Part shown: positions 24,559 through 41,837 of the stretch, piece by piece
How positions within the stretch are numbered: position 1 is the stretch's first letter
Layout of the letters: the number at the start of each line of letters is the position of its first letter
From: Gaiellales bacterium
Lineage (GTDB): Bacteria > Actinomycetota > Thermoleophilia > Gaiellales > JAICJC01
Reading direction: 5' to 3'
DNA: 42,733 bases
NCBI GenBank assembly: GCA_035456145.1
Contig: DATIDU010000104.1
Location: 1 to 42,733 of the forward strand
Made by a program: the position numbers and the translations under genes
The notes under the pieces: generated by a model
The model's input: only the letters and a program-made list of their open reading frames with translations
What the model was told of the DNA's origin: nothing
The model's database searches: none

Positions 24559-24608
24559 CCGGGCACCACCGCCGCCTGCCGTAGTAGAAGCCCACATGCC
24601 GGATGCGT

Positions 24609-24626
24609 GCCCGCACGGATGCGGGC
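24609..24626 (+). terminator. Small hairpin downstream of the GGDEL gene
   Basis: GCCCGCA, loop CGGA, TGCGGGC (7-bp stem), 50 nt after the stop at 24558. It is weak and has no U-tract. Confidence 0.3.
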
Positions 24627-24671
24627 GGCTCTCTGCCCGGGCATCCTAAGTCCGACGGGAAGGGAGTACGC

Positions 24672-25184
24672 ATGCGGGTGCTCGTCACCGCATCGAGCAA
24701 GCACGGAGCGACCGCCGACATCGCCGACGCGGTCGCCGGCGTGTTCGAGGCCCGCGGTCTCCACGTTACCGTGAGGGCGCCGGAGGATGTCCGCGACGTG
24801 CGCGGGTTCGACGCGTTCGTCGTCGGAAGCGCCGTCTACGCCGGCCGCTGGATGGGCGAGGCGCGCAGGTTCGTCGACCGCCATGCCGAGGCGCTCGCCT
24901 CACACCCCACCTGGCTCTTCTCGAGCGGCCCGATCGGCGACCCGCCGAAGCCTGAGGCCGGGGCGGCGGTCAAGCTGGACGACGTGATGGCCAAGACCGG
25001 CGCCCGCGAGCACCGGCTCTTCCCCGGACGGCTCGACCGCCGCCGGCTGGGCCTGGGCGAACGCACGGTGGTGCGGATGGTGAGAGCGGCGGACGGCGAC
25101 TACCGCGAGTGGAACGACGTCGCGGCATGGGCGGACACGATCAGCGAGGCGCTCCGGGCCGCTGAAGCCGAGGCCGTCCGATGA
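24672..25184 (+). CDS. Flavodoxin-like domain protein (HemG-like family)
   Basis: ATG 24672 follows GAAGGGAG. The sequence MRVLVTASSKHGATADIA..FDAFVVGSAVYAGRWM is typical of long flavodoxin-fold proteins. The stop overlaps the next ATG (ATGA). Confidence 0.8.
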   Translation: MRVLVTASSKHGATADIADAVAGVFEARGLHVTVRAPEDVRDVRGFDAFVVGSAVYAGRWMGEARRFVDRHAEALASHPTWLFSSGPIGDPPKPEAGAAVKLDDVMAKTGAREHRLFPGRLDRRRLGLGERTVVRMVRAADGDYREWNDVAAWADTISEALRAAEAEAVR

Positions 25185-26050
25185 CGGTGCTCGCCCATCC
25201 CGTATCGCATCCTCCCGCTGTGCAGCCCCGCCCCGAGGCGGATCGGGCGTCGGCGTGGCTCCTTCTGACCGTGCCGATCGTGGTGCTCGCCGTCGCCGGG
25301 AGCGCCGCGGCGCTCCTCGACGGAGGAAGCTACTCGCACGAGACGTCCAACTGGGCGGCGCAGGCCACGGGGCAGGACATCGCCAACCTCGTCGTCTTCC
25401 CGGTCATGGCGGTCGTGGCGGTGCTCGCGTGGAGGGGGTCGCTGCGGGCGCGCCTGGCATGGAACGGCTTCGCCGCGTATGGCGTGTACGCGTACGCGAT
25501 CTACTCCTTCGACGTCCACTGGAGCCGGCTCTTCCTGCTCGACGTGGCGGTGTTCGGTCTGTCGGTCTACGCCCTCGCCGGGGGGATCGCGTCGCTCCAC
25601 CTCGACGCCGTCCGCGCGCGGTTCTCGCCCGCCGCACCCGTCCGCTCGACCTCGCTGGCGCTGATCGGAATCGCGGTCGTCTTCTCGGCGCTCTGGCTCG
25701 CCATCGAGGTGCCCGCGGCCTTGAGCGGCACGCCCGCGGACGAGCTGCGCGACGTCGGGCTCTTCACGAACCCCGTCCACGTGCTCGATCTTGCCGTGGC
25801 CCTCCCGGCGACGGCGATCGCGGGCCTGCTCCTCCGCCTGCGCCGGCCGCTCGGCTACTGCCTGGCCCCGCTCATCCTGTCGATGCTCGCCGCGCTCACG
25901 GTCGGGATCGTCTCGTTGATGCTGGTCGCTGCCCACCGCGGCATCGATCCCCTGGGCCCCGGCATCGTCGTGACGAGCGCGCTCATGGTCGCCGAGCTCG
26001 TGCTACTCGGGCGCTTCCTCGGCTCGATCGACGAGCCCACCGCGGGCTGA
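25181..26050 (+). CDS. Integral membrane protein, unknown function (about 7-8 TM)
   Basis: 289-aa hydrophobic ORF translationally coupled to the flavodoxin-like gene. I recognise no family. Confidence 0.7.
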   Translation: MTVLAHPVSHPPAVQPRPEADRASAWLLLTVPIVVLAVAGSAAALLDGGSYSHETSNWAAQATGQDIANLVVFPVMAVVAVLAWRGSLRARLAWNGFAAYGVYAYAIYSFDVHWSRLFLLDVAVFGLSVYALAGGIASLHLDAVRARFSPAAPVRSTSLALIGIAVVFSALWLAIEVPAALSGTPADELRDVGLFTNPVHVLDLAVALPATAIAGLLLRLRRPLGYCLAPLILSMLAALTVGIVSLMLVAAHRGIDPLGPGIVVTSALMVAELVLLGRFLGSIDEPTAG

Positions 26051-26081
26051 CGGTCACCGGACTGCAACGGAACGGTCACGG

Positions 26082-26128
26082 GCGAGGGTGCGTAACCTGG
26101 TTACACCCCCGCCGCGGTCGGCCCTCGC
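26082..26128. terminator. Imperfect compound hairpin between convergent genes
   Basis: The outer stem is GCGAGGG (26082-26088) / CCCTCGC (26122-26128). The inner stem is GTG(C)GTAACC / GGTTACAC. Confidence 0.3.
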
Positions 26129-26133
26129 AGCGT

Positions 26134-26748
26134 TTACCGACCCTTCCATGGATCGACGTAGACGTCGTCGATTCGCCAGTCGCCGCCGTGCGGGGTGAAC
26201 CGAAGCTGAATCGACGCCGTCCCGTCGTTCACGATCGGAAGCGCCGTCAGGTTCGCCAGCAGGAGGAACACGGGTGTCGGCTGCCATGCATCGGTCCCGT
26301 CGACCCGGCCGACCGGAACGACGAGCGGGCCGAGCAGCGTGTGCACGATCACGCTGACCGAGAGCGAGCCGTTCGGGTCGCCATCGTTTCGAGCGAAGAA
26401 TCGCATCGTCGGCGAGTCGAGGCCGATGCAGACGTCGGCGCTCGTTGCCCGGCTCCCGTCAGGGAGCGCGAGCGACCACGAGTCGCCGGCGCCGCCGACC
26501 TGGAAGCTCTCGTTGCCGGCGACGACCGCGGCGCCGTCCTCGAGGCTCCAGACGCCCCCGCCCTGTTCGAAGCCGCCGTCGGGCGCGAGCACGTACCACG
26601 ACTGGTCGCCCCACGGCAGGAACGGCTGGACGGCATCGGCGCTCGGGCAGCCGTCGAGGAGCGAGGCGCTCGCCGACGGGACTGCGATCGCCAGAGCCGC
26701 GAGCGCGGCGGTGACGGTGACGGAAAGCCGGACGATAAACGGTCGCAT
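26134..26748 (-). CDS. Secreted hypothetical protein
   Basis: 204-aa ORF with a signal peptide (LSVTVTAALAALAIAVPSASA|S). GC3 is high. I recognise no family. Confidence 0.7.
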   Translation of the reverse strand: MRPFIVRLSVTVTAALAALAIAVPSASASLLDGCPSADAVQPFLPWGDQSWYVLAPDGGFEQGGGVWSLEDGAAVVAGNESFQVGGAGDSWSLALPDGSRATSADVCIGLDSPTMRFFARNDGDPNGSLSVSVIVHTLLGPLVVPVGRVDGTDAWQPTPVFLLLANLTALPIVNDGTASIQLRFTPHGGDWRIDDVYVDPWKGR

Positions 26749-26897
26749 CGGAACTCCTTCACGGTCGACGACCCGACCTACCTCGCCACGGGGGAGGGAG
26801 GCCTACCTCCCCTCTTTGCGGTATCCAGCATCCCTCCGCCGAGGGATTTGCACGGCCGCGCCCGGGGCTAGACTGGTGCGCGGTCCCGCCGGCAACG

Positions 26898-28184
26898 GTG
26901 GAGGTGATGGTGGACATCCTTGGCGGATCACCGGGCAGGGCCGCCGAGCTCGACTCGGCGATAGATGCACCGATCGCTGCGGCGCGCGCCCGCATGCCCG
27001 AGCGCCTCTCGCACCGCGACCGGGTCGTGAGCGGGCTCCTCTCGACGGCGTTCCTCGCGGTCGCCGTCCCGCTCGCCGTCGCCGCGCCCGACGGCGGCCG
27101 CCACCCGGGCATCGCCCTGGTCGCCGCGTTCACGGTGGCGTACGCCGTGTGCTCGTGCATCGAGTTCGAGGTGTCGAGCGGGACGGGCGTGCCGACGATG
27201 CTCGTGCTCGTCCCCATGCTCTTCGTGCTTCCGCCCGGCTGGGTGCCGCTGGTCGTCGCCGCGGGACTCCTCGGCGGCGGTGCCTGGGAATGGCGTCGCG
27301 GCGACCTGCACCCCGAGCGCGGGCTCGTGCTGACCTCGGGCGCCTGGCACGCCGTCGGCCCAGCCCTCGTCCTGTCGTTCGCGGGGGCGCCGCCGCCGCG
27401 GCTCTCCGACTGGCCCATCTACGCGGCCGCGCTCGCAGCACAGTTCGGCTTCGACTTCGCGAGCGCCGCGCTCCGCGAGCGGATCGCCTTCGGCGTCCCC
27501 GTCAGCGTGATGGCGCCGGCGATCGCACGCGTGTGGGTCATCGACCTGCTCCTCGCACCGCCCGCGTTCCTCGCGGCGCTCGCGACGGCCGGCGAGCCGT
27601 ACGCATGGCTGCTCGTGCTTCCGGCGGCCGCGCTCCTCGCCGACATGGCCCGCGACCGGCGCGCCCGCATCACCGAGGCGCTGCGGCTGGCGCACGCGTA
27701 TCGCACGGTCGACCACAAGGCCCATCGCGACCCCCTGACCGGCGTCGGGAACCGGCTGGCCTGGGACGAGGCCGTGGCGCTCGCCGACGCCCAAAGCGCC
27801 GGGCCGGTCAGCGTGATCATCGCCGACCTCGACGGCTTGAAGCGCGCGAACGATGAGCGCGGCCACGACGTGGGTGACGCGCTGATCTGTGCGGCCGCCG
27901 AGACGATCCGCCACCAGGTGCGGGAGTCCGACCTGGTCGCCCGGCTGGGCGGCGACGAGTTCGGCGTGCTGCTCTCCGGCGCGTCACCGGCACGGTGCCG
28001 GCTCACAGCCGAGCGGATCGCGAGCGCGGTCTCGGAGCACCCTCCCGTCCGGGGCATCCGGCTCTCGGTCTCACTCGGCTGGGCCGCCACTCCCGACGTC
28101 CCGTCGGTCTCGGAGGCCAAGCGGGTGGCCGACAAGCAGATGTACGCACAGAAGCAGTCTCACCTCGCTGCCCGGCCGGCATAG
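26898..28184 (+). CDS. Membrane-anchored diguanylate cyclase (multi-TM N-terminal domain + GGDEF)
   Basis: 428-aa ORF with an N-terminal ~6 TM region, then LTGVGNR, DLDGLKRANDERGH, an RESD I-site and RLGGDEF. The start is GTG 26898 or ATG 26907. Confidence 0.85.
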   Translation: MEVMVDILGGSPGRAAELDSAIDAPIAAARARMPERLSHRDRVVSGLLSTAFLAVAVPLAVAAPDGGRHPGIALVAAFTVAYAVCSCIEFEVSSGTGVPTMLVLVPMLFVLPPGWVPLVVAAGLLGGGAWEWRRGDLHPERGLVLTSGAWHAVGPALVLSFAGAPPPRLSDWPIYAAALAAQFGFDFASAALRERIAFGVPVSVMAPAIARVWVIDLLLAPPAFLAALATAGEPYAWLLVLPAAALLADMARDRRARITEALRLAHAYRTVDHKAHRDPLTGVGNRLAWDEAVALADAQSAGPVSVIIADLDGLKRANDERGHDVGDALICAAAETIRHQVRESDLVARLGGDEFGVLLSGASPARCRLTAERIASAVSEHPPVRGIRLSVSLGWAATPDVPSVSEAKRVADKQMYAQKQSHLAARPA

Positions 28185-28648
28185 GTCGATACGCTCCCGG
28201 CATCGCCGAGCAGTTCGTCATCGAGCACGTCTTCGCGGCGTCCCGGGAGCGCGTGTTCGAAGCCTGGGTCAACCCCGAGGTGCTGCGCCGCTGGTGGGGC
28301 GCCGGGCCCGACTGGACCTCGCCGTCCGTCGAGATCGACCCGCGTCCGGGCGGGAGCTACCGGCTCTCGATGCAGGATCCGGCGGGGACCGTCCGGACGG
28401 TCGGCGGCCGCTACGTCGAGGTGGACCCGCCCCGCCGGCTCGTGTACACATGGGCATGGGAGTCGGACGGGGCCGAGGATGATGACGCGACGCTCGTCAC
28501 CGTCGAGTTCCACGAGCCGCAGCCCGGCCGGACCCGCGTCGTCCTCACGCACTCCGGCTTCGCAGATGCCGCCCGCCGCGACATGCACCGCGAAGGCTGG
28601 GAGCTCTGCATCGCCAACCTGCGCTCGCGCGTGCTCGAGCCGGAGTGA
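28181..28648 (+). CDS. SRPBCC/AHSA1 (Aha1-like) domain protein
   Basis: This is the C-terminal part of ORF 27995..28648, with FVIEHVFAASRERVFEAWVNPEVLRRWWG..DPRPGGSYRL..PPRRLVYTW. The start is unresolved: homology begins within a few codons of ATA 28181, which overlaps the upstream TAG. The only canonical in-frame start is GTG 27995, 62 codons inside the cyclase gene. Confidence 0.75.
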   Translation: MGRYAPGIAEQFVIEHVFAASRERVFEAWVNPEVLRRWWGAGPDWTSPSVEIDPRPGGSYRLSMQDPAGTVRTVGGRYVEVDPPRRLVYTWAWESDGAEDDDATLVTVEFHEPQPGRTRVVLTHSGFADAARRDMHREGWELCIANLRSRVLEPE

Positions 28649-28654: not shown

Positions 28655-30370
28655 CTACGGCGGCAGCGTCGCGGCGCACTCCAGGACGAGCGCGTGCACG
28701 AACGCCTGGGGGAGGTTCCCCCGCAGCTGGCGCTGGGAGACGTCCCACTCTTCGGCGTGGATGCCCGGGCCGCCGCTCGCGCTTCGGGCCCGCTCGAACC
28801 AGCGCGTCGCGCGGAGCGGCTCGCCCTGTCCGTGCAGCGCGAGCGCCATCCACAGGCCGCAGATGAGAAACGCGCCCTCGGATTCGCCGAGCGGGCGATC
28901 GTCGAGCCGGTAGCGGTAGGCGAAGCCGTCCTCGGCCAGCTCGCGGTCGACCGCCTCGATCGTGGCCCGGGTGCGCGGGTCGCCCGGCGGGACGGCTCCC
29001 CGGATCCCGGCCGTGAGGAGCGATGCATCGACCCGCTCGTCACCGGCCGCGCGCTGCCAGCGCCCGGACGGATGCAGACCCCAGGCCGTCGCGTCGGCCA
29101 CGAGGGTGTCAGCCAGCGCGTCCCACTCGGGGAGGCCGGCGCCGGCAGCGCCGATCCGGCGCAGGCCCGCGGCGCAGATCAGCGTGCTGTGCGTCCAGCG
29201 GGCCGGGTCGAGCTCCCACACCCCGGAGTCCTGCTCGCGCCGGCGGGCGGCCACCGCGTCGGCGGCCACAGCCGCTGCGCGCCGCCCCTCGGCGTCGAGG
29301 CGGTCGCGCCGGGCGGCGGCCGCGAAGAGGAGCAGCGCCTCGCCGAAGCAGTCGAGCTGGAACTGGTCGGCGGCACTGTTGCCGACCACGTCGCAGCGCC
29401 CGGGGTAGCCGGGCAGGTCGAGGCTGCGCTCGCCGGGGACCTCGCCGCCGGCGGTCGTGTACACGGGCCGAAGCTGGGGCCCGTCGTCGATGAGGCGCGC
29501 CGAGACCGTGTGCACCGCGTCATCCAGGATCTCGTCGACGCCGGCGGCCGCAGCCGCCTGCCCGGCGTAGCACTGGTCGCGGATCCAGGCGTAGCGGTAG
29601 TCGTAGTTTCGCCCTTCGCGCGCCCGCTCCGGAAGCGAGGTGGTCGCCGCCGCGACCATCGCGCCGGACGAGGCGGTCAGCCCGCGCATGACCGCCACGG
29701 CGTGCCGAGCCTCGCGGGTCGCAACGGCGTCCTCGAGCTCGGGGACGCGATCGGCCCACGCCGCCTCCGTCTCTCGCCACGCCCGCTCTGCGGAGGGCGG
29801 CGGGGCGGGGTCGCCGGCGCGATCGAGGACGAGCACCAGGTCGTGGACATCGCCTTCGGCGAGATCGAGGTGCAGCTCCAGGAGCCCGTCGCGGCCCGGC
29901 CGCGCGGCGGCGGCCCCCGCCCAGAGCCCCGCCACCTCGCCGCTGCGAAGGCGCCAGAGGTCGCCGTCCAGGCGGGGCGGATCCAGGCCCGCCGCGCCGA
30001 ACCCGGCCCTGGGCGACAGCCGCACCGAGAGCGCCGCCCGGCCGGCCACGACGCCGATCCGCCGCAGGACGACCGCTCGGTCGGGGCGCGACGGGAGCGC
30101 GAGCGCCTCACGGCATTCGACGATCGCCTCGTCCGTCACCCAGCGGCTGCGCCAGATGAGCGACCCCCGCTCGTAGTAGCCGCCCCACACGTACCGGCCG
30201 CGCGGCCGCACCGCGTAGGTCCCTCCGCCGCCGATGATCTCCGAGAAGACCCCGTCGGAGTCCCAGCCGGGGAAGCACATCCAGGCGATGTCGCCGTCGG
30301 GGCCGACCAGCGCGCCGCGCTCGCCGTCGGCGATGAATGCGTAGTCGCGAAGGACGTGCGGCCGGGTCAC
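28655..30370 (-). CDS. Glycoside hydrolase family 15 (glucoamylase/trehalase-like)
   Basis: This is the last 571 codons of ORF 28655..32452, with LRDYAFIADGERGALVGPDGDIAWMCFP and NYDYRYAWIRDQCYA. The GTG at 30370 overlaps the upstream stop (GTGA). Confidence 0.9.
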   Translation of the reverse strand: MTRPHVLRDYAFIADGERGALVGPDGDIAWMCFPGWDSDGVFSEIIGGGGTYAVRPRGRYVWGGYYERGSLIWRSRWVTDEAIVECREALALPSRPDRAVVLRRIGVVAGRAALSVRLSPRAGFGAAGLDPPRLDGDLWRLRSGEVAGLWAGAAAARPGRDGLLELHLDLAEGDVHDLVLVLDRAGDPAPPPSAERAWRETEAAWADRVPELEDAVATREARHAVAVMRGLTASSGAMVAAATTSLPERAREGRNYDYRYAWIRDQCYAGQAAAAAGVDEILDDAVHTVSARLIDDGPQLRPVYTTAGGEVPGERSLDLPGYPGRCDVVGNSAADQFQLDCFGEALLLFAAAARRDRLDAEGRRAAAVAADAVAARRREQDSGVWELDPARWTHSTLICAAGLRRIGAAGAGLPEWDALADTLVADATAWGLHPSGRWQRAAGDERVDASLLTAGIRGAVPPGDPRTRATIEAVDRELAEDGFAYRYRLDDRPLGESEGAFLICGLWMALALHGQGEPLRATRWFERARSASGGPGIHAEEWDVSQRQLRGNLPQAFVHALVLECAATLPP

Positions 30371-31330
30371 CGTCGGAGCGACCGAGCCGCGAGCAGCGCA
30401 CCGCCGGCGGCGGCGAGCAGCGCGCCGCGGTGCGTGGCGAGCCAGAGCTCGAGGCTCTGAGAGGCCCCGTCCTCGACCGGCTCGAACAGGTTGTCGGGCC
30501 GGTCGCGGTCGACCGGCACGCCCTGCATCTGCTGGGCGTCGTAGCCGGTCCGGGCAAGGTAGCGGTCGGCGAGCCCGGGCGCGACCATCGACGCCGCGAT
30601 CGCCTTGAGCGCGCTCCCGCCCACGATCAGCTCGCGGCGGCGGTGCGTCGCCGCCCAGTACACGGCCTCGGCGGGCACGTCCGGGGTCGAAGATCGGCGG
30701 GACCGGTTGCGGATGATCCGGGAGCCGTGTGCGGCACCACGAGAACTGGGGCGTGTTCACGGCCGGGAGCTGCACCATCGTGATCCACACGCGGCTTCGG
30801 TCGTGCAGGAGCTCCGTGCGGACGGAGTCGGTGAAGCCGCGGACGGCGAACTTCGCGCCGCAGTACGCCGCCTGAAGCGGGATCGCGCGGTATGCGAGGG
30901 CCGAGCCGACCTGGACGACGACGCCGTGGTCGCGCGGAACCATCCGCCGCAGCGCGGCCATCGTGCCGTGCACGGTGCCCAGGTACGCCGCCTCGGTCGC
31001 CCGCCGGAACTCGTCGGGCGCCGTCTCGGCGAGCGGTGCGAACACGGTCGCCATCGCGTCGTTCACCCACACGTCGATCGGCCCCGCCTTCCGCTCGACG
31101 GCCTGCGCGGCCGCGTCCACCTCGTCGTGCTCGGCGACGTCGGCCGGGAGGACGAGCGCCGTCCCGCCCAGCGCGCGCACCTCCTCCGCCGCGGCCTCGA
31201 GGCCGGCCCGTCCCCGGGCGACGAGGCCGACCGTTGCGCCGCGGCGGGCGAAGGAGTGGGCGACCGCCCGCCCGACGCCCGCCGACGCGCCGGTGACCAC
31301 CACCACCTGGGGCGGCGGCGCGTCCCTCAC
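30367..31330 (-). pseudogene. SDR-family oxidoreductase interrupted by a single +1 frameshift (or sequencing error)
   Basis: The N-terminal ~213 codons (VVVVTGASAGVGRA.., NDA, YCGAKFAV, ..PVPPIFDP) are in one frame. The conserved C-terminus (VPAEAVYWAATHRRRELIVGG..DRYLARTGY, ORF 30367..30678) is in the +1 frame. The break is at TCCGGGG, 30680-30686. The GTG at 31330 overlaps the GMC stop (GTGA). Confidence 0.7.
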
Positions 31331-32931
31331 GCCGCCCACCTGCCGTTGGCCTCCACTCGCCGCGCGGCCAGCCGCTCGGCGAGCCGGGCCGCGAGGGCCA
31401 TGATCGTGAGTGCAGGGTTGGCGCTCCCCTGCGTGGGCATCACGCTCCCGTCGCAGACGAACAGGTTGCGAACGCCCCACACCCGGTGGTCCGCGTCGAC
31501 GACGCTCGTCTCGGGGTCTGTCCCCATCCGGCACCCGCCGACGAGGTGCGCGTACCGGTCGATCGTGAGAATGTCCTGGGCGCCGGCCGCCTCCCAGATG
31601 CGGTTGATCATGCGCTTGGCGTATGCGACGTTCGCGCGGTCGTTCTCGCACTGGGTGTAGCTGAACCGGGCGACCGGCATGCCGAACTGATCCGTCTCGC
31701 CGGCGAGCGTCACCCGGTTCTCGGCCCGCGGGAGGAGCTCGCACAGGGCGCCGAGCACGGCCCAGTGGTTGTAGTCGCGCATGTATTCGCGCAGGGCCGT
31801 GCCGTGGTGCCCGTCGGCGAGCACGTGCTCGGCCCAGCCGATCGGGAGCGGGCTCACGGTCTGGATCGAGAAGCCGCGGGCGAAGCAGCGCTCGGGATCC
31901 GTCTCGTAGAACTGCTCGGAGGAGACCTCCGGCGGCGGCGCCTTGTACATCCGCAGGAGCTCGGGGAAGCGGCCCGCGATCTGCGGAGCGCCCTGCACCA
32001 TCACGTAGCGGCCCACCTGGTCGTGCTCGTTCCCGACCCCGGAGTGCAGCAGGAGCCGGGGCGTCTCGATCGCGTAGCCGCACACCGCCACGGCGCGGGC
32101 ACGCTGCACGCGCTCGGTGCCGTCGCGGACGTAGCGGACGCCGGAGGCCGAGCCGCCGCCGTCCATCTCGATCCCGACGACCATCGCGTCGGCCCGGACC
32201 TCCGCCCCCTGGTCGAGGGCGTCGGGCACATGCGTGACGAGCGGGCTGGCCTTGGCGTTCACCTTGCAGCCCTGAAGGCAGAAGCCGCGGTAGATGCAGT
32301 GCGGCCGGTTCCCGAAGCGGCCGTTCGTGATCGCCACCGGGCCGACGCGCATCTCGATGCCGCAGGCCCGCGCGCCCTCCCAGGCCCGCTCGGCGGCGCC
32401 GCAGACCGGGTGCGGGCGGTGCGGATAGCCGTGCGGGTCGCCCCATGGCCACCGCTGCCCCGCGACGGGTAGCTCACGTTCCAGCACGCGGTAGTGGTCG
32501 CGCAGCTCGGCGTAGGTGATCGGCCAGTCGGCGCCGACACCGTCGACCGTGCGGGTGGCGAAGTCCGACGGGTGAAACCGAGGGGTGTAGCCGGCGAAGT
32601 GCACCATCGAGCCGCCGACGCCGAGACCGCTGTTGTTCTTGCCCATCTCGACGGGGTCCTCGCCCGCGATGATGCGGGTGTCGTTCCAGTAGAGGTGCGA
32701 CGAGCCGGCCTCGTCGGATACCCAGTCGCGGTCGGGATCCCAGAACGGCCCCCGCTCGAGGACGACGATCCTCCACCCGGCCCGTGCCAGCCGCTGGGCG
32801 AGCACGCCGCCACCCGCGCCGCAGCCGACGATCGCCATGTCAACCGCATCGTCGTCGCGAAAGCGGCGCATCCGATCGAGGCCGGGAACGCCGCGCCGGT
32901 GCGGGTGAAGCAGGAGGTGGGAGCGATTCAT
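31327..32931 (-). CDS. GMC-family FAD-dependent oxidoreductase
   Basis: The N-terminus has DMAIVGCGAGGGVLAQRLARAGWRIVVLERGP. The C-terminus has HLVGGCRMG..VCDGSVMPTQGSANPALTIMALA. The ATG at 32931 overlaps the upstream stop (ATGA); an alternative ATG is at 32871. Confidence 0.9.
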   Translation of the reverse strand: MNRSHLLLHPHRRGVPGLDRMRRFRDDDAVDMAIVGCGAGGGVLAQRLARAGWRIVVLERGPFWDPDRDWVSDEAGSSHLYWNDTRIIAGEDPVEMGKNNSGLGVGGSMVHFAGYTPRFHPSDFATRTVDGVGADWPITYAELRDHYRVLERELPVAGQRWPWGDPHGYPHRPHPVCGAAERAWEGARACGIEMRVGPVAITNGRFGNRPHCIYRGFCLQGCKVNAKASPLVTHVPDALDQGAEVRADAMVVGIEMDGGGSASGVRYVRDGTERVQRARAVAVCGYAIETPRLLLHSGVGNEHDQVGRYVMVQGAPQIAGRFPELLRMYKAPPPEVSSEQFYETDPERCFARGFSIQTVSPLPIGWAEHVLADGHHGTALREYMRDYNHWAVLGALCELLPRAENRVTLAGETDQFGMPVARFSYTQCENDRANVAYAKRMINRIWEAAGAQDILTIDRYAHLVGGCRMGTDPETSVVDADHRVWGVRNLFVCDGSVMPTQGSANPALTIMALAARLAERLAARRVEANGRWAA

Positions 32932-33599
32932 TCCAGACCGCGCTCCCGGACGTCGCGGACCGGGTCGACCTCGAACGCCTCGCGGCCCTCCCACGGCTCG
33001 TGGCGGTCGACGCCGAGCGCCTGGTACCCGCGCGGGTAAGCCGGTCCGCCGAACCCGATCTCGTTCCAGGCCCACGGATGGGAGTAGAACGCCTCGAGCA
33101 GGTCGCGCATGACGACGGCGTAGGCCCGCTTCACGTTCACGCCGTCCCAGGCACCGCCGGAGAGCCGGCCCGCGGCGAGCTCCTCCGCGATCCGCTCACG
33201 CGTCTCCGCCGGGGCGTTCGCGTACGGCTCCCCCGCCGCCTCGTCGAGCCCGCCCGCCACGGTCCGCCACGTCTCGCGGTCGTCGGGCATGTCCTCGTAG
33301 CGGTAGCCGTCGCCGCGGCCGCTCTCCAGCTTCGCGTCGACGAACGAGAGCGCCGGAACGCGCGGCTCGCGATCCTGGGCGAGCACGACGTCGCCGAAGG
33401 CCGTCAGCGTGGCGAACTCCTCCCGCGAGAAGAACCGGCGTTCGGGGGGCGACTCAACACGGGCCAGGATCAGCTCGCGCGTGCGCTCGTCCCAGTGGCC
33501 GAGCTCCTCCATGACGTCGAAGTCCGGGTAGCGGCCGCGCATCTGGGGGGTCGTGCCGCGCCGCTGCCGGGGGAGCCCCGCCGGCTCCGCAGAGCTCAT
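32928..33599 (-). CDS. Gluconate 2-dehydrogenase subunit 3-like protein
   Basis: This is the last 223 codons of ORF 32928..33878. RRFFSREEFATLTAFGDVVLAQD..ALSFVDAKL resembles the subunit-3 family that partners GMC dehydrogenases. No hydrophobic Tat/Sec signal follows the N-terminal RQRRG. The ATG at 33599 overlaps the upstream stop (ATGA). Confidence 0.75.
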   Translation of the reverse strand: MSSAEPAGLPRQRRGTTPQMRGRYPDFDVMEELGHWDERTRELILARVESPPERRFFSREEFATLTAFGDVVLAQDREPRVPALSFVDAKLESGRGDGYRYEDMPDDRETWRTVAGGLDEAAGEPYANAPAETRERIAEELAAGRLSGGAWDGVNVKRAYAVVMRDLLEAFYSHPWAWNEIGFGGPAYPRGYQALGVDRHEPWEGREAFEVDPVRDVRERGLE

Positions 33600-34015
33600 C
33601 GCTCCCGTTCCATGAGCGGCGCCAGGAGGCCGAGCGCGCCGACCGCCAGGAGTGCGCCCGGCGCCAGGAGCGGCGGCCCCATGACCAGGTTGTAGGCGGT
33701 CTCGCGGAAGCCGCCCGGCCGGCGATGGATGCCGCGGACGTGCGTCACGAGGCCCGCCACGCCGTCCAGCACGAAGAGCGCGGACACCGCCGGCAGCGCG
33801 GTCCGGGCCACCCGGGGCGAGAAGGCGGCGGCGACGCCCGCAACCGTCAGCGGCGGCGCGAGGACGATCGGCGTCCACATCCAGCGGTCGGCGAACGACC
33901 CCTTCTCGTGCTCGAGATAGATCTCAAACGCAAGCGGCGGCGCGGCCGCGGCGGCGGCCAGTCCCAGCGTCTTCTGCATGCGCCCGGCGCGGAGGTTGGC
34001 GAGCACGCGTCTCAT
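33596..34015 (-). CDS. Small integral membrane protein (about 4 TM), unknown function
   Basis: 139-aa ORF. ATG 34015 is preceded by GAGGAG. Hydrophobic segments are present. It is translationally coupled to the subunit-3-like gene. Confidence 0.6.
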   Translation of the reverse strand: MRRVLANLRAGRMQKTLGLAAAAAAPPLAFEIYLEHEKGSFADRWMWTPIVLAPPLTVAGVAAAFSPRVARTALPAVSALFVLDGVAGLVTHVRGIHRRPGGFRETAYNLVMGPPLLAPGALLAVGALGLLAPLMERER

Positions 34016-34025
34016 CGGACTCCTC

Positions 34026-35144
34026 TCATCGGATGGCGTACCGCTCGGCGTCGGGGTGCTTCAGGTCGTAGCCGGCACCGGGGCGGGACAGGTCGGGCCG
34101 CAGGCATCCGTGCTCCGGCTCGGCGGGGCCGTCGAGGAGCAGCGCCTCGGCGCGGACGTGGTCTGCGAAGTACTCGAGATGGCGCAGCCGGCCGGCGGCG
34201 CAGCAGGGATGCAGGTGCGCCGCGGGCGCGCAGTGGGCCGACAGGTCGAGGCAGTGGGCGGAGCACAGTGCGGCGACGCGCAGGAACCCGGTGATGCCGC
34301 GGCAGCGGGTGACGTCGGCCTGAAGACAGTCGACCGCGCCGGCTCCGAGGAGGCGTGCGAAGTCGACGTCAGCGAAGCCGTACTCGCCCGCGGCGAGGTC
34401 GATCCCGGCCGGCAACCGGTCACGCAGGAGCCGCAGGCCCGCCAGGTCGTCCGACGACACGGGCTCCTCGAACCAGACGACGCGGGCCGGCGCCAGCACG
34501 TCCTCGGCGAACGCCAGGGCCGCCTTGCGGGAGAGGGCGCCGTTGGCGTCGGCCATGAGCTCCGCGCGGGGGCCGATCGCGCTGCGGGCGAGCGCCACCC
34601 GGCCAGGGTCGGCGGCCGGATCGCGCCCGACCTTCATCTTGACACGCGGGATGCCCATCTCCACCCAGCCGCCGAGCTGGCGCTCCAGCTCGGCGTCAGT
34701 GAGCGACGTGAAGCCGCCGCTGCCGTAGACCGGCACCTCGTCCCGGGCCTCGTCGAGCAGCGTGACGAGTGGCAGGCCGAGCAGGCGCGCCTTCAGATCC
34801 CAGAGCGCGAGGTCGACCGCCGCGATCGCCATCGACGCCACGCCGACCGAGCCGGCGTTCCGGCAGGCGGCGACCATCCCCTCCCAGGCGACGGCTACGG
34901 CGAAGGCGTCACGGCCCACGACCACCGGCGCGAGGAGCTCGTCGACGACGCTGCGGCAGGCACGGGAGCCGTAGGTGTAGCCCACGCCGGTCTCGTCGCC
35001 GGCGTGCGCCTCGACGACGATCATGACGGTCGAGGCCCACCGCGCCGTCCCATCCGACTCAGGCGTCTCGAGCGGGATCTCGAACGCCCGCGCATCGAGG
35101 GCCGAGACGGCGGCCTCGGTGCCGGCGACGGTTACCTGGCTCAC
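34026..35144 (-). CDS. Enolase-superfamily enzyme (mandelate racemase/muconate lactonizing enzyme family, possibly a sugar-acid dehydratase)
   Basis: This is the last 372 codons of ORF 34026..35873, with KMKVG, ADANGA, FEEPV and DLAAGE metal/catalytic motifs. The GTG at 35144 overlaps the upstream stop (GTGA). Confidence 0.88.
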   Translation of the reverse strand: MSQVTVAGTEAAVSALDARAFEIPLETPESDGTARWASTVMIVVEAHAGDETGVGYTYGSRACRSVVDELLAPVVVGRDAFAVAVAWEGMVAACRNAGSVGVASMAIAAVDLALWDLKARLLGLPLVTLLDEARDEVPVYGSGGFTSLTDAELERQLGGWVEMGIPRVKMKVGRDPAADPGRVALARSAIGPRAELMADANGALSRKAALAFAEDVLAPARVVWFEEPVSSDDLAGLRLLRDRLPAGIDLAAGEYGFADVDFARLLGAGAVDCLQADVTRCRGITGFLRVAALCSAHCLDLSAHCAPAAHLHPCCAAGRLRHLEYFADHVRAEALLLDGPAEPEHGCLRPDLSRPGAGYDLKHPDAERYAIR

Positions 35145-36925
35145 CGCTCCGGGAGCAGCCCGGCGACCATCTGCCGAAGGGACTGCCGGATCATGCGGCC
35201 CCGGTCGGGATCCCCGCGGACGACCGCCTCGGCGAAGTGGCGGGCCTGCTCGAACGTGATGTGCGGCGGAAGCGGCGGCACCTCGGGATCCGTGACGGCC
35301 TCGAGCACGGCCGGGCGGCCTGCGGCAAGCGCCGCGTCCCAGGCGGCGCCGACGTCTTCGGGATCGTCCACCCGGATGCCGGCAAGCCCGATCATCTCCG
35401 CGAACCGCGCGTACGGGAAGTCGGGGATGTCCTGCGACGCCTCGTACTTCGGGTCGCCCTGCATGACACGCTGCTCCCAGGTGACCTGGTTCAGGTCGTG
35501 GTTGTTCAGCACCATCACCACCAGGCGCTGGTCGCGCCAGCGCTCGTGATACTTGGCGATCGTGATCAGCTCGGCCATGCCGTTCATCTGCATCGCGCCG
35601 TCGCCCACGAGCGCGATCACCGGGCGGGCGGGATGCGCGAACTTGGCGCCGATGGCGTACGGCACGCCCGCGCCCATGGTCGCCAGGTTGCCCGAAAGCG
35701 ACGCCATCATCCCGTCGCGCACCCTCACGTCGCGCGCGAACCAGTTCGCCGCCGAGCCGGAGTCGGAGGTGATGATCGCCCGGTCGGGCAGGCGGAGGGC
35801 GAGCTCGTGGAACACCCGCTGGGGGTTGATCGGGTCGGCCGGAGACAGCGCCCGCTCCTCGAGAACATGCCACCAGTCGCCGACGGAGCGTTCGATGCGC
35901 TCACGCCACGAGGCGTCGGTCTTCGGCTCGAGCAGCGGCAGGAGCGCCGCGAGCGTCGCGCGGGCATCGCCGACGAGCTGCACCTCCATCGGGTAGCGGA
36001 TGCCGAGCATGCGTCCGTCGACGTCGATCTGCACGCCGCGCGCCTGGCCCTCCTCGGGGAGGAACTCCGAGTAGGGGAAGCTCGACCCGACCATGAGCAG
36101 CGTGTCGCACTCGTCCATGAGCTCCCAGCTCGGCCGGGTGCCGAGCAGGCCGATCGAGCCCGTCACGAACGGCAGGTCGTCGGCGACGACGGCCTTGCCG
36201 AGGAGCGCCTTCGCGATCCCGGCGCCGAGCGTCTCGGCCGTCAGGATGACCTGGTCGCGTGCGCCCAGCGCGCCCTGGCCGACGAGCATCGCCACCCTCT
36301 CGCCGGCGTTCAGCACCTCGGCCGCCCGCTCGAGGTCGGCCCGCTGGGGCACGACAACGGGCCGCGAGTATCCCGGGGAGGAGTGGATCGTGCCGTGCGC
36401 GCGGCCCGGCTCCTCGGCCGGTCGCGCCGCAAGGTCGTTGGGGACGACGATGCAGGTGACCGTGCGCTGGTCGAGCGCGATGCGCGCCGCGCGGTCGACC
36501 AGGTGGCGCATCTGGGACGGGTCGGTCGCCATGTGCACGTACTCGTGGGCGACGTCCTTGAACAGGGTCGTCAGATCGACCTCCTGCTGGTAGGAGCCGC
36601 CCAGCGCGGGCATCGCCTGCTGCCCGACGATCGCGAGCACCGGCTGGTGGTCGAGCTTCGCGTCGTAGAGGCCGTTCAGGAGGTGGATCGCCCCGGGGCC
36701 CGACGTGGCCAGGCAGACGCCGAGCTGGCCGGTGAACTTGGCGTGCGCGCAGGCCATGAACGCCGCCATCTCCTCGTGCCGCGCCTGGATGAACTCCGGG
36801 TCGCCGTCCGCACGGTCGAACGCGCCCATGATGGCGTTGATCCCGTCGCCGGGATAGCCGTAGACGCGGTGGATCCCCCACTCGCGCAGGCGCGAGACGA
36901 GGAAGTCGGCGACGGACTCAGCCAT
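35141..36925 (-). CDS. Thiamine-pyrophosphate enzyme, pyruvate oxidase/pyruvate dehydrogenase (quinone) PoxB-like
   Basis: 594-aa ORF with RHEEMAAFMACAHAKFTG, ATSGPGAIHLLNGLYDA and the TPP motif GDGAMQMNG..NNHDLN. Confidence 0.9.
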   Translation of the reverse strand: MAESVADFLVSRLREWGIHRVYGYPGDGINAIMGAFDRADGDPEFIQARHEEMAAFMACAHAKFTGQLGVCLATSGPGAIHLLNGLYDAKLDHQPVLAIVGQQAMPALGGSYQQEVDLTTLFKDVAHEYVHMATDPSQMRHLVDRAARIALDQRTVTCIVVPNDLAARPAEEPGRAHGTIHSSPGYSRPVVVPQRADLERAAEVLNAGERVAMLVGQGALGARDQVILTAETLGAGIAKALLGKAVVADDLPFVTGSIGLLGTRPSWELMDECDTLLMVGSSFPYSEFLPEEGQARGVQIDVDGRMLGIRYPMEVQLVGDARATLAALLPLLEPKTDASWRERIERSVGDWWHVLEERALSPADPINPQRVFHELALRLPDRAIITSDSGSAANWFARDVRVRDGMMASLSGNLATMGAGVPYAIGAKFAHPARPVIALVGDGAMQMNGMAELITIAKYHERWRDQRLVVMVLNNHDLNQVTWEQRVMQGDPKYEASQDIPDFPYARFAEMIGLAGIRVDDPEDVGAAWDAALAAGRPAVLEAVTDPEVPPLPPHITFEQARHFAEAVVRGDPDRGRMIRQSLRQMVAGLLPER

Positions 36926-37502
36926 CGGAGCGCGATCCCGTAGCAGCGGTGCGCGAGCCGTGCGCGGCGAGCTGGTTCAGCATCTGCTCGCAGAACGCGG
37001 GCAGGTCGTCAGGCTTTCGGCTGCTCACAAGCATGCCGTCCACGTGGACCGTCTCCTCGACCCACGTCCCGCCGGCGTTTCGGATGTCGGTCTGAAGCGA
37101 CGGCCACGACGTGATGGTGCGGCCCTTCACCACGTCCGCCTCGACGAGCGTCCACGGGCCGTGGCAGATCACCGCCACCGGGCGCTCGTCGGTGAAGAAG
37201 GCCTTCACGAACCGCACCGCCCGCGGGTCGGTCCGCAGCATGTCGGGGTTCGCCACGCCGCCGGGCAGGACGAGCCCGTCATAGCGCGCCGGGTCGGCAT
37301 CATCGAGGCCCTGGTCGGCGTTGTAGGTCTTCGACTTGTCGAGGTGGTTGAACGCCTGGACGCTCCCGCCCTCCGGGGAGACAAGCTCCGGCTTTCCGCC
37401 GGCCTTCTGGACGGCCTTCCAGGGCTCGGTCATCTCGATCTCCTCGACGCCCTCGTCGGCGACGAGAAACGCGATGGTCTGTCCGTTCAGGTCTGGTGCC
37501 AT
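36918..37502 (-). CDS. DJ-1/PfpI family protein (type 1 glutamine amidotransferase-like, general-stress-protein-18-like)
   Basis: 194-aa ORF with the nucleophile elbow VAVICHGPW and LVLPGG. Its 3' end overlaps the next gene by 8 nt. Confidence 0.9.
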   Translation of the reverse strand: MAPDLNGQTIAFLVADEGVEEIEMTEPWKAVQKAGGKPELVSPEGGSVQAFNHLDKSKTYNADQGLDDADPARYDGLVLPGGVANPDMLRTDPRAVRFVKAFFTDERPVAVICHGPWTLVEADVVKGRTITSWPSLQTDIRNAGGTWVEETVHVDGMLVSSRKPDDLPAFCEQMLNQLAAHGSRTAATGSRSDG

Positions 37503-37511
37503 TGGGGGTCC

Positions 37512-37847
37512 CTACCGTTTCTTTGCATCGACGGCCCGCTGAAGCTGGGCCTTGTTCATGCTGGAGCGGCCCTGGATGCCGCGCTGCTTCGCCTCGTTGT
37601 ACAGCTGCGCCTTTGTGCGGCCCTTCGGCCGGTTCGTGCCAGACCGCTGTCCGCCGCGGCGCGACGAGGACATGTCCTGGGTCGAGCTCCGGGAGGCGGT
37701 CCGGGTCTGACCCTTCTGCGCCCGCTCCTTGTTGACCGTCCGCGCGGCGATCTCCTTGGCGCGCCGCGGGGATGCCCCCTGCTCGCGCTCGGAGTCGCGA
37801 ATGTGCTCGTACTTGCGTTCCTGTTTCCCGGTCCAGGTGCTGGGCAT
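37512..37847 (-). CDS. Small basic hydrophilic protein with C-terminal Rho_N/SAP-like motif
   Basis: ATG 37847 follows GGGAG at 8 nt. The 111 aa include KQERKYEHIRDSEREQG..AKEIAARTVNKERA and C-terminal TKAQLYNEAKQRGIQGRSSMNKAQLQRAV. Confidence 0.7.
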   Translation of the reverse strand: MPSTWTGKQERKYEHIRDSEREQGASPRRAKEIAARTVNKERAQKGQTRTASRSSTQDMSSSRRGGQRSGTNRPKGRTKAQLYNEAKQRGIQGRSSMNKAQLQRAVDAKKR

Positions 37848-37885: not shown

Positions 37886-37911
37886 ATACCCGCACGTGCC
37901 GCCCGGCTAAC
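37886..37911 (-). promoter_or_regulatory. SigB/SigF-type promoter candidate GTTA-N16-GGGTAT
   Basis: The minus strand reads GTTA (37911-37908), a 16-nt spacer, then GGGTAT (37891-37886). It lies 38 nt upstream of ATG 37847, the first gene of the nine-gene operon. Confidence 0.45.
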
Positions 37912-37914
37912 GGG

Positions 37915-38103
37915 TCAGGAGTTGCGCTCGTGGTCAGGCGCGGGCGCCGCCGGCTTCGCCTCGTCGCGGTTCCGGCGGTCAGGCTTCGGCGCCTCGCGCT
38001 TGGTGCCGTAGCGGTCCTCCTCGGATTCCGGGCGGCCGGGGTCGGAGCCGCCCGGATACTCCTCGCCGTGCGAGCGGTCTTCGCCGGAGCTTGGGCGGCT
38101 CAT
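37915..38103 (-). CDS. Tiny hydrophilic, probably disordered protein (62 aa)
   Basis: The ORF is rich in E/D/R/P/G. Its ATG overlaps the stop of the upstream membrane-protein ORF (ATGA at 38100-38103). Confidence 0.5.
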   Translation of the reverse strand: MSRPSSGEDRSHGEEYPGGSDPGRPESEEDRYGTKREAPKPDRRNRDEAKPAAPAPDHERNS

Positions 38104-38375
38104 CCCTGCGTCCGGTCGCGCGACGCCGCGACGGTGTCACGGGTTTCGGTCTCGGGCGGTGACATCGCCTGGCCGACCGCCTCGCCGGGCTCCTGCTCCT
38201 CGACCCGGCGGCCGCCGCGGCTCGCGGCCGCGCCGCGAAGGGCGCCACCGACCAGGACGAGGGCCAGGATGATCACAAGCGGGATGGCCAGGAGAGCTGC
38301 GCCCGGCACGATCACGATCGAGACGAGGGCGAGCAGGAGCACGATCACGATCAGGATGGGGGTTGCTGCAATCAT
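38100..38375 (-). CDS. Small membrane protein (91 aa, two hydrophobic helices)
   Basis: This is the C-terminal part of ORF 38100..38744. ATG 38375 is followed by IAATPILIVIVLLLALVSIVIVPGAALLAIPLVIILALVLVGG. Confidence 0.6.
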   Translation of the reverse strand: MIAATPILIVIVLLLALVSIVIVPGAALLAIPLVIILALVLVGGALRGAAASRGGRRVEEQEPGEAVGQAMSPPETETRDTVAASRDRTQG

Positions 38376-38384: not shown

Positions 38385-38409
38385 GTACCCGCACGCGAAG
38401 CGGCGCAAC
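38385..38409 (-). promoter_or_regulatory. Weaker SigB/SigF-type promoter candidate GTTG-N15-GGGTAC
   Basis: The minus strand reads GTTG (38409-38406), a 15-nt spacer, then GGGTAC (38390-38385). Only 9 nt separate the -10 from ATG 38375, so the transcript would be nearly leaderless. Confidence 0.3.
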
Positions 38410-38414: not shown

Positions 38415-38440
38415 GTTTGGCCCGTTCGTCTGACGGGTAG
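38415..38440 (+). promoter_or_regulatory. SigB/SigF-type promoter candidate GTTT-N16-GGGTAG
   Basis: GTTT at 38415-38418, a 16-nt spacer, then GGGTAG at 38435-38440. It lies about 130 nt upstream of ATG 38573. Confidence 0.4.
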
Positions 38441-38572: not shown

Positions 38573-38812
38573 ATGGCGCAGGGCGCAGGGATCGACGCGA
38601 CGAGCAGCCTGACCGACGTCCAGGAGGCGTTCCGGGGCCAGGGCATGGAGCTCGTCGTCCGCCTGCGCGGAACGAGGTGGCAGGCGCTCGTGCGCGCCAT
38701 CCCCGGCAACGGCAGGCTGCACGCCGACGCGTGGGCCGCCTCACCCGACGAGGCCGCCCGGCGCGCGTGGCGGCGCCACATCGAGGAGCACGGCGGGACC
38801 GGGGCGAGCTAA
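38573..38812 (+). CDS. Hypothetical small protein (79 aa)
   Basis: The ORF has strongly GC-biased third positions and ends in a TAA stop that is the first triplet of repeat copy B. I recognise no family. Confidence 0.55.
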   Translation: MAQGAGIDATSSLTDVQEAFRGQGMELVVRLRGTRWQALVRAIPGNGRLHADAWAASPDEAARRAWRRHIEEHGGTGAS

Positions 38813-41552: not shown

Positions 41553-41578
41553 GTTTGCCGCGCGCGCGGGAGGGGTAG
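41553..41578 (+). promoter_or_regulatory. SigB/SigF-type promoter candidate (G)GTTT-N16-GGGTAG
   Basis: GTTT at 41553-41556 (preceded by G), a 16-nt spacer, then GGGTAG at 41573-41578. It lies 13 nt upstream of ATG 41592. Confidence 0.45.
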
Positions 41579-41591: not shown

Positions 41592-41837
41592 ATGCGGCTC
41601 GCGAGCTACCACACCGCCTACGGCAGCCACCGGGGGGCGTGGTGCACGTTCCACGAGGTGCGCATGCTCGCGATGCGCGTGACCGAGGACGGCCCGCGAC
41701 TCATCGAGTCGCCCGAGGAGCTGACCGAGGGCACGATCCTCCACGCCCATGACGGACGCTACCTCGAGGTGTTCATCGTCGATTTCAAGGGCCGGTACTT
41801 CTGCGAGACCGTCGACGTCGGAGACACCGCGGCGTGA
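41592..41837 (+). CDS. Hypothetical small protein (81 aa)
   Basis: This is the in-frame ATG within ORF 41280..41837, after the divergent promoter region. The stop overlaps the next GTG (GTGA). I recognise no family, and the start is uncertain. Confidence 0.5.
   Translation: MRLASYHTAYGSHRGAWCTFHEVRMLAMRVTEDGPRLIESPEELTEGTILHAHDGRYLEVFIVDFKGRYFCETVDVGDTAA

Follow-up and report, generated by a model that had tools for sequence, protein, structure and literature searches.

A putative stress operon of soil Gaiellales with a predicted cytoplasm-facing, quinone-linked oxidation module

Nine minus-strand genes of a soil bacterium of the order Gaiellales, named A to I here and running from an ATG at position 37847 to a stop at 28655 of contig DATIDU010000104.1 (assembly GCA_035456145.1), form what we hold, with confidence a little on the favourable side of even, to be a stress operon in which three units have been fused and which carries a cytoplasm-facing, quinone-linked oxidation module. 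The fused units would be the gene of a basic protein (A), that of a PfpI/YhbO-type protein (B), and an old module found across phyla that comprises C, D, E, F and G together with H and I. The whole stretch of DNA analysed, called the window below, is 42,733 nt long with 72% G+C; the closest named relatives of its proteins come from soil metagenome-assembled genomes (MAGs) of Gaiellales/Thermoleophilia, and its DNA is detected chiefly in soil and rhizosphere metagenomes. The operon itself is an ordinary stress operon; what is new is the predicted topology of the dehydrogenase encoded by E, F and G, and its third subunit.

The block opens with gene A (37512-37847, ATG start, 111 residues) and gene B (36918-37502, DJ-1/PfpI), followed by gene C (35141-36925), with the three domains of thiamine pyrophosphate (TPP) enzymes, and gene D (34026-35144, GTG start), with the N- and C-terminal MR_MLE domains. 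Gene E (33596-34015) codes for 139 residues with four hydrophobic helices, gene F (32928-33599) for a Gluconate_2-dh3 protein, and gene G (31327-32931) for a protein with the N- and C-terminal GMC domains. Gene H (30367-31330), a short-chain dehydrogenase/reductase (SDR), is spread over two frames, and gene I (28655-30370, GTG start) carries TREH_N and glycoside hydrolase family 15 (GH15) domains. The gene calls were checked against the list of open reading frames (ORFs), the translations, the junction sequences and a frame plot of G+C at third codon positions (GC3), whose periodicity is strong in each of the nine genes (at least 0.9 in the coding frame). Gaps of 9 nt and 10 nt separate A from B and D from E, the second with GAGGAG inside it. 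The other junctions are overlaps, of 8 nt at B/C (ATGGCTGA) and of 4 nt at C/D, G/H and H/I (GTGA) and at E/F and F/G (ATGA), and the GTG starts of D, H and I sit within the GTGA overlaps. A sequence-only reading of the window had described nine tightly packed genes with these domains; ORFs, GC3 plot and junctions bear out the packing, and Pfam and NCBIfam searches the domain calls, with the Rho_N call for A falling below its cutoff.

That reading had named internal promoters or terminators as what would split the block into unrelated units. A consensus scan, covering sigma-70-type promoters only, found no sigma-70-like promoter inside it, and no SigB/F-type motif was found on its minus strand. 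Terminator-like sites stand at the shuffle level (2 against a mean of 1.7, i.e. no excess); just one of them is on the operon strand, where it forms a weak hairpin of 5 bp within gene E. At the distal end, 6 nt lie between the stop of GH15 and the end, at 28648, of a convergent SRPBCC/AHSA1 gene, so that the block goes no further than GH15. From the shared strand, the six overlaps of 4-8 nt, the two gaps of 9-10 nt and the lack of internal signals, we infer that the block is one transcript.

A SigB/SigF-type promoter (CGTTAGC-N14-GGGTAT) lies on the minus strand at 37886-37912, with CGTTAGC as its -35 element, a 14-nt spacer, and GGGTAT as its -10 element, 38 nt ahead of the ATG of A; transcription is predicted to start near 37878, about 30 nt before that codon. 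The B. subtilis SigB consensus is GTTTaa, 13-15 nt, GGG(A/T)A(A/T) (PMC7824861), and the mycobacterial SigF consensus GGWWT-N16-17-GGGTAY (PMC7693655). The SigB/SigF-like box first noticed from the letters alone, and now given these coordinates, fits them, and it recurs before homologues of A. An alignment of five related orthologous loci shows no change in either box, with a spacer that varies. With the pattern CGTT-N15-19-GGGTAT, the operon box is the single match in the window, and the strict pattern GTTT-N14-18-GGGTA has three further matches, each ahead of a gene start, where 0.07 would be expected. The relaxed pattern GTT-N15-19-GGG(T/A)A is not enriched window-wide (6 found against 5.2 expected); what supports the promoter is the strict pattern, together with where the sites lie and their conservation.

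The distribution of the motif in other genomes points in the same direction. Within 220 nt upstream, it is found for 32 of 78 other Actinomycetota homologues of A, compared with 1.5% of random windows (p ~1e-37). It also precedes 8 of 11 homologues of the PfpI protein B and 7 of 64 homologues of the TPP enzyme C, all seven of them from Actinomycetota. No such motif precedes the internal genes (D, 0/79; F, 0/36; G, 0/32; I, 0/14). As A, B and the module led by C each carry it separately and the internal genes never do, this is independent evidence that all three belong to the regulon, and the block is probably stress-induced through a group-3 (SigB/SigF-type) sigma factor.

With regard to RNA, the sole junction crossed is A/B, by one metatranscriptome contig (depth 2.6) that agrees letter for letter with 37481-37696 of the window, and near-identical contigs from RNA libraries fall within I, H, G and D. 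Most metatranscriptome contigs are 90-95% matches that come from homologues in other organisms; only a handful are near-identical, at a depth too low to speak for or against co-transcription or induction.

The full A-to-I order, with an intact SDR gene, is present at four other loci (L081, L082, L085 and L093), all close relatives; further contigs that break off early show part of it, and the arrangement is kept in relatives whose DNA is about 80% identical. A genome search anchored on D returned 80 loci from at least eight phyla, including Planctomycetota, Chloroflexota, Acidobacteriota, Myxococcota, Pseudomonadota, Actinomycetota, Verrucomicrobiota and Nitrospirota, among others. Within 9 kb of D, C is encoded at 61 of these loci, F and H at 34 each, E and G at 32 each, and I at 20; of the 15 loci with H as well as I, 10 have the two side by side as a pair. 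The nine-gene order is limited to a shallow Gaiellales clade, and the C-G core is far older. The synteny that the sequence-only reading had looked for among related genomes thus stands within that clade, and beyond it the core (C, D and often E-F-G) recurs, in many cases with SDR and GH15 genes close by. Gene A is almost always solitary in the 78 other Actinomycetota loci. We read the operon as three units, each with this promoter class elsewhere, that became fused behind the promoter of A, with A and B as recent additions.

The core is found as TPP enzyme, enolase-superfamily enzyme, hypothetical protein, subunit 3 and GMC protein on pDEIPE01 of Deinococcus peraridilitoris, with a GH15 gene nearby, and on a plasmid of Bradyrhizobium japonicum, with an SDR gene in addition. 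A Burkholderia multivorans plasmid (L089) has the pair SDR-GH15, then the TPP enzyme, and then enolase-superfamily enzyme, hypothetical protein, subunit 3 and GMC protein. There, two terminal oxidases border the module, one at each end: an operon for a cytochrome c oxidase and the genes of a cytochrome bd ubiquinol oxidase (1220-7005 and 16803-19230). Mn-catalase, ferritin-like and BON-domain genes are near it. On plasmid pWB1 of Rhodococcus sp. WB1 (L091), GH15 and SDR genes stand beside those of the TPP and enolase-superfamily enzymes, after which a 983-residue protein annotated as FAD-binding and (Fe-S)-binding (13187-16135) takes the place of E-F-G; an SRPBCC gene and ctaD come next. We read this protein as GlcD/GlcF-like. 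The replacement suggests that the dehydrogenase step has been functionally substituted, and it makes a hydroxy-acid or sugar-acid substrate at least as likely as glucose.

That A-B, C-G and H-I stand as separate units elsewhere also lends itself to another explanation, namely, that the block is divided by undetected promoters of another sigma class or by processing, with these three pieces as the candidates. The two gaps (A/B, 9 nt, and D/E, 10 nt) have no translational coupling, and the promoter scan was of the sigma-70 type only. The boundaries of the pieces at B/C and G/H, however, overlap by 8 and 4 nt and leave no non-coding room for a conventional promoter; no internal SigB/F motif was found, terminators are not in excess, and relatives preserve the arrangement. 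We therefore regard a divided block as quite unlikely and continue with the single stress operon.

Within this operon, the predicted dehydrogenase unit E-F-G departs from the described enzymes of its class. Protein G has the GMC_oxred_C (7.3e-32) and GMC_oxred_N (4.9e-14) domains of Pfam, and its solved relatives are 6a2u_B (1.1e-39) and 7w2j_A (7e-32), the catalytic subunits of flavin adenine dinucleotide (FAD)-dependent glucose dehydrogenase and of fructose dehydrogenase. Its motif C212-x5-C218-x3-C222 aligns with Cys212, Cys218 and Cys222 of 6a2u_B, which are the ligands of the 3Fe-4S cluster in FAD-glucose dehydrogenase (PMC6719666). Furthermore, G keeps a His aligned with the FAD-linked His105, as well as the His/Asn catalytic pair. 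Protein F matches PF13618 (7.3e-12; 46.2 bits against a cutoff of 23.4) and is a small subunit of the gamma or "hitchhiker" type; a search by sequence for its solved relatives gave nothing useful. Neither F nor its homologues in all phyla examined have a twin-arginine translocation (Tat) signal, i.e. a twin-arginine motif with a hydrophobic region, and F has no cysteine (count, 0). Lacking both, it should leave the dehydrogenase in the cytoplasm.

The third conserved partner of the F-G unit is the four-helix protein E, which stands at the place of the cytochrome c subunit; a CxxCH motif is absent from all nine proteins, so the block has no cytochrome c subunit. Protein E has no family in Pfam or NCBIfam. 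Of its 2881 homologues, the named ones among the best 120 are all "hypothetical protein", none with a Pfam domain, and among 1.84 billion proteins the family has 744 cluster representatives, of which many contain two repeats. Alignment of the repeats indicates that E is duplicated head to tail in other phyla, giving proteins of about 285-340 residues. His36 and His92 are invariant among the homologues. The AlphaFold model is a confident four-helix bundle, with a predicted local distance difference test (pLDDT) score of 89 and a predicted template modelling (pTM) score of 0.81, and a fold search of the model against the PDB returned generic four-helix bundles only, at E >=0.2, with nothing significant. 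Where gene E is detectable, it always adjoins F and G. We propose that E anchors the F-G dehydrogenase in the membrane and serves as its electron outlet, and that E, F and G may form a complex containing haem.

A broader claim would be that E-F-G represent a new class of respiratory dehydrogenase, facing the cytoplasm and reducing quinone through an undescribed di-histidine membrane subunit, four-helix or duplicated eight-helix and probably binding haem b. Together with the PRK08273 and 3cyj-type enzymes (the families of C and D), it would constitute an ATP-independent, quinone-linked pathway that oxidises an internal sugar or sugar acid for maintenance energy in dormancy, in soil bacteria of at least eight phyla, placed in each under the local stress regulon. 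In this general form the claim is speculative, and we consider it rather unlikely.

Protein C belongs to NCBIfam PRK08273 (NF006129, 1064 bits against a cutoff of 724) and stays under the cutoffs of the pyruvate-specific equivalogs (393 against 792 bits for PRK09124, and 470 against 742 for PRK08611). Its best solved match is E. coli PoxB (3ey9, 2.6e-88), the TPP motif GDG-N-NN is present, and by analogy the protein is assumed to carry FAD. As C is constantly paired with an enolase-superfamily enzyme, we suspect that its substrate is a 2-oxo acid different from pyruvate. The enzyme in question, protein D, matches MR_MLE_C (3.2e-53) and MR_MLE_N (4.2e-14) of Pfam, and a pattern search located K169-x-K171, D199 (DANG), E226 (EEP), E253 (GEY) and D277 (QAD). 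By these features, D is a member of the mandelate-racemase subgroup of the enolase superfamily. The candidates for the catalytic His of the Asp-His dyad are His297 and His304, between which alignment does not fix the choice. Its best solved relative, 3cyj (1.7e-119), was deposited without an assigned function, and its best match in the genome collection is 64% identical. When scored against the equivalogs of talarate/galactarate, rhamnonate, galactonate, gluconate, arabinonate and mannonate dehydratases, D is under the cutoff of every named acid-sugar dehydratase, the best being TalGalacDh with 165 bits against 500.

In the mandelate pathway, mandelate racemase, a membrane-associated mandelate dehydrogenase and benzoylformate decarboxylase act together, and the core matches this logic in that it joins an enolase-superfamily enzyme to a flavoprotein dehydrogenase of the membrane and to a TPP enzyme. 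One may accordingly suppose that C-D-E-F-G oxidise a non-carbohydrate 2-hydroxy acid, or detoxify or repair a damaged metabolite, and that GH15/SDR, PfpI and A are unrelated to them except for a shared promoter. The Rhodococcus variant with its FAD-binding and (Fe-S)-binding protein would suit this explanation, as would the solitary state of A and B in most genomes and the existence of H and I as a pair of their own in 10 of 15 loci. It has to contend with the recurrence of H and I near the core in Burkholderia, Caballeronia, Acidimicrobiia and Rhodococcus, and with the fact that G is closest to sugar dehydrogenases. On balance, we judge such a non-carbohydrate route to be somewhat improbable, and we retain an internal carbohydrate or sugar acid as the substrate class of the proposed stress operon.

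Protein I matches Glyco_hydro_15 (4.6e-39) and TREH_N (2.2e-14) of Pfam. Against the trehalase equivalogs, it reaches 182 bits where 820 are needed for archaeal TreH1, and 130 where 1000 are needed for TreH2; a search by sequence returned no solved relative, even at E = 10. Its substrate is not assignable from sequence. The sequence-only reading had proposed that a storage sugar, trehalose or a glucan, is mobilised and oxidised. Spelled out as a route, GH15 would be a trehalase or glucoamylase that frees glucose from this store, E-F-G would act as a glucose/gluconate dehydrogenase, D would dehydrate gluconate to 2-keto-3-deoxygluconate, and C would decarboxylate the latter. In its favour, G has its nearest solved relatives among FAD-glucose and fructose dehydrogenases, GH15 has TREH_N and finds its best NCBIfam matches among trehalases, the best named matches of D are acid-sugar dehydratases, and F falls in the family of gluconate 2-dehydrogenase subunit 3. 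Every supporting family match is, however, far under its cutoff, no more than 20 of the 80 loci have GH15 within 9 kb of D, Rhodococcus swaps E-F-G for a protein that we read as a 2-hydroxy-acid dehydrogenase type, and the conserved core has no sugar transporter or kinase. That trehalose or a glucan is mobilised and then oxidised is plausible but not favoured by the data, and this particular route as a whole seems to us possible but doubtful. Our own account of the operon leaves the sugar or sugar acid unspecified.

The SDR encoded by H is of the PRK07109 type and has a hydrophobic C-terminal tail, i.e. it is tail-anchored. It is frameshifted, as had been noticed from the letters alone: one frame matches the NF005495 model over positions 8-219, the second frame over 221-289, and the two halves lie at 30641-31330 and 30367-30678. 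A run of C at about 30683 is one base too long, as judged by aligning the DNA with that of three relatives whose 331-residue SDR is intact. A contig from run X1, which holds 95% of the query words, has the extra C at a depth of about 6, and near-identical contigs from X5 and X18 are without it. The extra C is thus either a lesion at the level of the strain or an error of low coverage, and does not characterise the operon. Near-identical contigs that lack the extra base also lead us to reject programmed frameshifting of the SDR. The shifted frame itself runs through about 100 Arg/Pro/Ala-rich codons and then into the GH15 frame, giving a notional SDR-GH15 fusion of 891 residues (28655-31330); the lack of a stop is explained by the rarity of stops in the alternative frames of G+C-rich DNA. 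The tail of H is also 33 nt shorter than in relatives, through an in-frame deletion.

A second deletion affects F, which is about 20 N-terminal residues shorter than all actinobacterial homologues (33540-33599, compared with 14250-14330 of L081): an in-frame 60-nt deletion has removed the conserved HLP(K/N)xxxG motif. Together with the SDR frameshift and the 33-nt tail deletion, this loss of a conserved motif could mean that the operon is decaying in this strain and no longer functions as a whole. The other genes are nevertheless intact, with 80-98% protein identity to L093, the single relative compared gene by gene; GC3 periodicity is strong and both deletions are in frame. The extra base, absent from the contigs of two samples and carried at a depth of about 6, may be a rare variant or an error. 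A decayed operon is, in our view, very improbable.

The two proteins encoded ahead of the core differ in how readily they can be assigned. Protein A is highly basic (29 K+R against 10 D+E) and has no match in Pfam or NCBIfam at E <=0.01. Its C-terminus is weakly Rho_N/SAP-like (Rho_N, E = 0.014, 15.8 bits against a cutoff of 24.9), and the search for its solved relatives by sequence gave nothing useful. All of the 8000 candidates scored in its homology search were significant, and many metagenomic homologues are 80-95% identical, an unusual conservation for a small basic protein. Homologues are named "plasmid stabilization protein" at NCBI and "ParE" at JGI, neither with an evident basis. Protein B matches DJ-1_PfpI of Pfam (4.8e-50) and exceeds the TIGR01382 cutoff (150.2 against 139 bits); it is of the YhbO type, within the deglycase/glyoxalase/protease family, and its nucleophile elbow VAVICHGPW has the Cys-His motif.

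Taken together, the predictions can be arranged as follows. G would be the FAD- and 3Fe-4S-containing catalytic subunit of a dehydrogenase of the FAD-glucose, fructose or gluconate dehydrogenase kind, and F its small subunit without an export signal, so that E-F-G would be membrane-anchored and face the cytoplasm. E would replace the periplasmic cytochrome c subunit and pass electrons to quinone, probably via haem b. C may oxidatively decarboxylate a 2-oxo acid, with its electrons likewise delivered to quinone, and D may act as a dehydratase or epimerase on a hydroxy acid or sugar acid. GH15, along with the tail-anchored SDR, would provide the sugar substrate or trim it, and PfpI could handle reactive carbonyl by-products. 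The net outcome would be respiratory energy drawn from an internal carbohydrate or sugar acid, with no ATP spent, under stress or in dormancy. All the substrates, as well as the physiological role, are inferred.

Several observations weigh against this account of a stress operon. The -35 element of the operon promoter reads GTTA, not GTTT, with A for T at position 4, and no sigma factor or partner-switching gene is encoded in the window. When the alphaproteobacterial versions were scanned for EcfG-type promoters (GGAAC-N-CGTT), the one site to emerge was imperfect; it is located in a MAG of the Methylobacteriaceae, about 110 nt ahead of C, and speaks clearly neither for nor against such promoters. 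The RNA contigs are shallow (depth 2-8) and could be carry-over of DNA. As for the haem in E, the two invariant histidines are what suggests it. GH15 is near D in 20 of 80 loci and SDR in 34, so that these enzymes may serve a purpose other than that of C-G. Lastly, the SDR frameshift and the in-frame deletions in F and in the SDR tail may have left this copy partly impaired.

Directly upstream of the operon, a pair of small minus-strand genes codes for a 91-residue membrane protein (38100-38375) and a 62-residue hydrophilic protein (37915-38103), both without a Pfam family, and the pair is kept upstream of A in relatives. A promoter-like site, GTTG-N17-GGGTA, lies ahead of it on the same strand (38386-38409), so near the start codon that a near-leaderless transcript would fit. 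Read-through from this pair into A could give an eleven-gene unit. The three strict matches mentioned above are all on the plus strand. The first (14337-14360) precedes a HesB/IscA-like gene of Fe-S biogenesis (14393-14686), the second (38415-38439) a 79-residue ORF (38573-38812) divergent from the operon, and the third (41553-41577) a group of small ORFs with a DUF1360 gene (41834-42337). A Holin-X-like domain is found in ORF 41749-42720, which overlaps the DUF1360 group and runs past it. The part of the window in which the SigB/F-type matches cluster looks like a stress-regulon island.

On the distal side, the SRPBCC/AHSA1 gene (27995-28648, plus strand) lies between GH15 and a GGDEF gene; it is absent from this place in L081, L082 and L085, and on the Rhodococcus plasmid, too, the module is followed by an SRPBCC gene (16145-16618 of L091). 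The rest of the window (8045-20970 and 12053-28184) codes for several unrelated functions, namely a molybdoenzyme of the CO-dehydrogenase/xanthine-dehydrogenase type, a dimethylglycine/sarcosine-dehydrogenase-like enzyme, the alpha and beta subunits of an electron-transfer flavoprotein, an Fe-S/CCG oxidoreductase, and three GGDEF proteins, one of which also has EAL and PAS domains.

The proposed operon bears on the maintenance energy of non-sporulating soil bacteria in long dormancy, for which its module is a concrete and testable candidate source. Its respiratory hallmarks are the PoxB-like enzyme, the FAD/3Fe-4S dehydrogenase with a membrane subunit, and the terminal-oxidase neighbours in Burkholderia. 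In addition, the family of E is a candidate electron-transfer partner of direct-electron-transfer FAD dehydrogenases, the class used in glucose sensors. As Burkholderia multivorans, Caballeronia, Deinococcus peraridilitoris, Bradyrhizobium and Rhodococcus are culturable carriers, the module can be tested without the uncultured Gaiellales host.

The sequence-only reading was not aware of this combination as one characterised operon, and literature searches that joined the enzyme families with general stress, the SigF regulon or desiccation likewise returned no paper on it. A literature match in Burkholderia cenocepacia was set aside, being a canonical gluconate 2-dehydrogenase with cytochrome c and not this module. 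Among known systems, the mandelate pathway likewise has three such genes encoded together, for a mandelate-racemase-subgroup enzyme of the enolase superfamily, a flavoprotein dehydrogenase linked to the membrane and a TPP-dependent enzyme acting on a 2-oxo acid. The present dehydrogenase, in contrast, is of the GMC/FAD and 3Fe-4S type instead of containing flavin mononucleotide, and the TPP enzyme is PoxB-like and presumably quinone-linked, not a simple decarboxylase. D is distant from mandelate racemase (~1e-22), so that the likeness lies in the possible working and not in family membership. C shares the full three-domain TPP architecture of E. coli PoxB and belongs to the separate family PRK08273. 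I has the TREH_N and GH15 domains of the mycobacterial and archaeal GH15 trehalases (TreH), unlike which it stays, as given above, far below the TreH1 cutoff (182 against 820 bits).

Like the SigB regulon of Bacillus and the SigF/SigB regulons of Mycobacterium and Streptomyces, the window has promoters of the form GTT(T/A)-N-GGGTA(T/C), several of them clustered, together with PfpI-family, PoxB-like, SDR and small hydrophilic or membrane proteins; in these model regulons, however, such genes are scattered and not joined in one nine-gene operon. The B. subtilis genes ydaD, ydaP and yfkM, to which the SDR, the TPP enzyme and PfpI had been likened, are indeed members of the SigB regulon (PMC7824861). 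The parallels are family-level analogies; C is a PRK08273 protein and not a PoxB equivalog, and H is of the PRK07109 type. The main text of the paper on the M. smegmatis SigF regulon has no entries for GMC, glucoamylase, PfpI, thiamine or mandelate. A further close comparison is with the FAD-glucose dehydrogenase of Burkholderia cepacia, the fructose dehydrogenase of Gluconobacter and gluconate 2-dehydrogenase, with which G shares the His, the His/Asn pair and the 3Fe-4S cysteines (PMC6719666), and in which, as here, the gene of the Gluconate_2-dh3 small subunit lies directly upstream of the catalytic one. Cys213, which forms the inter-subunit disulphide of the Burkholderia enzyme (PMC6719666), is Ile in G; F has neither the Tat signal nor the cysteine of the small subunits in these complexes, and the multi-haem cytochrome c gives way to protein E.

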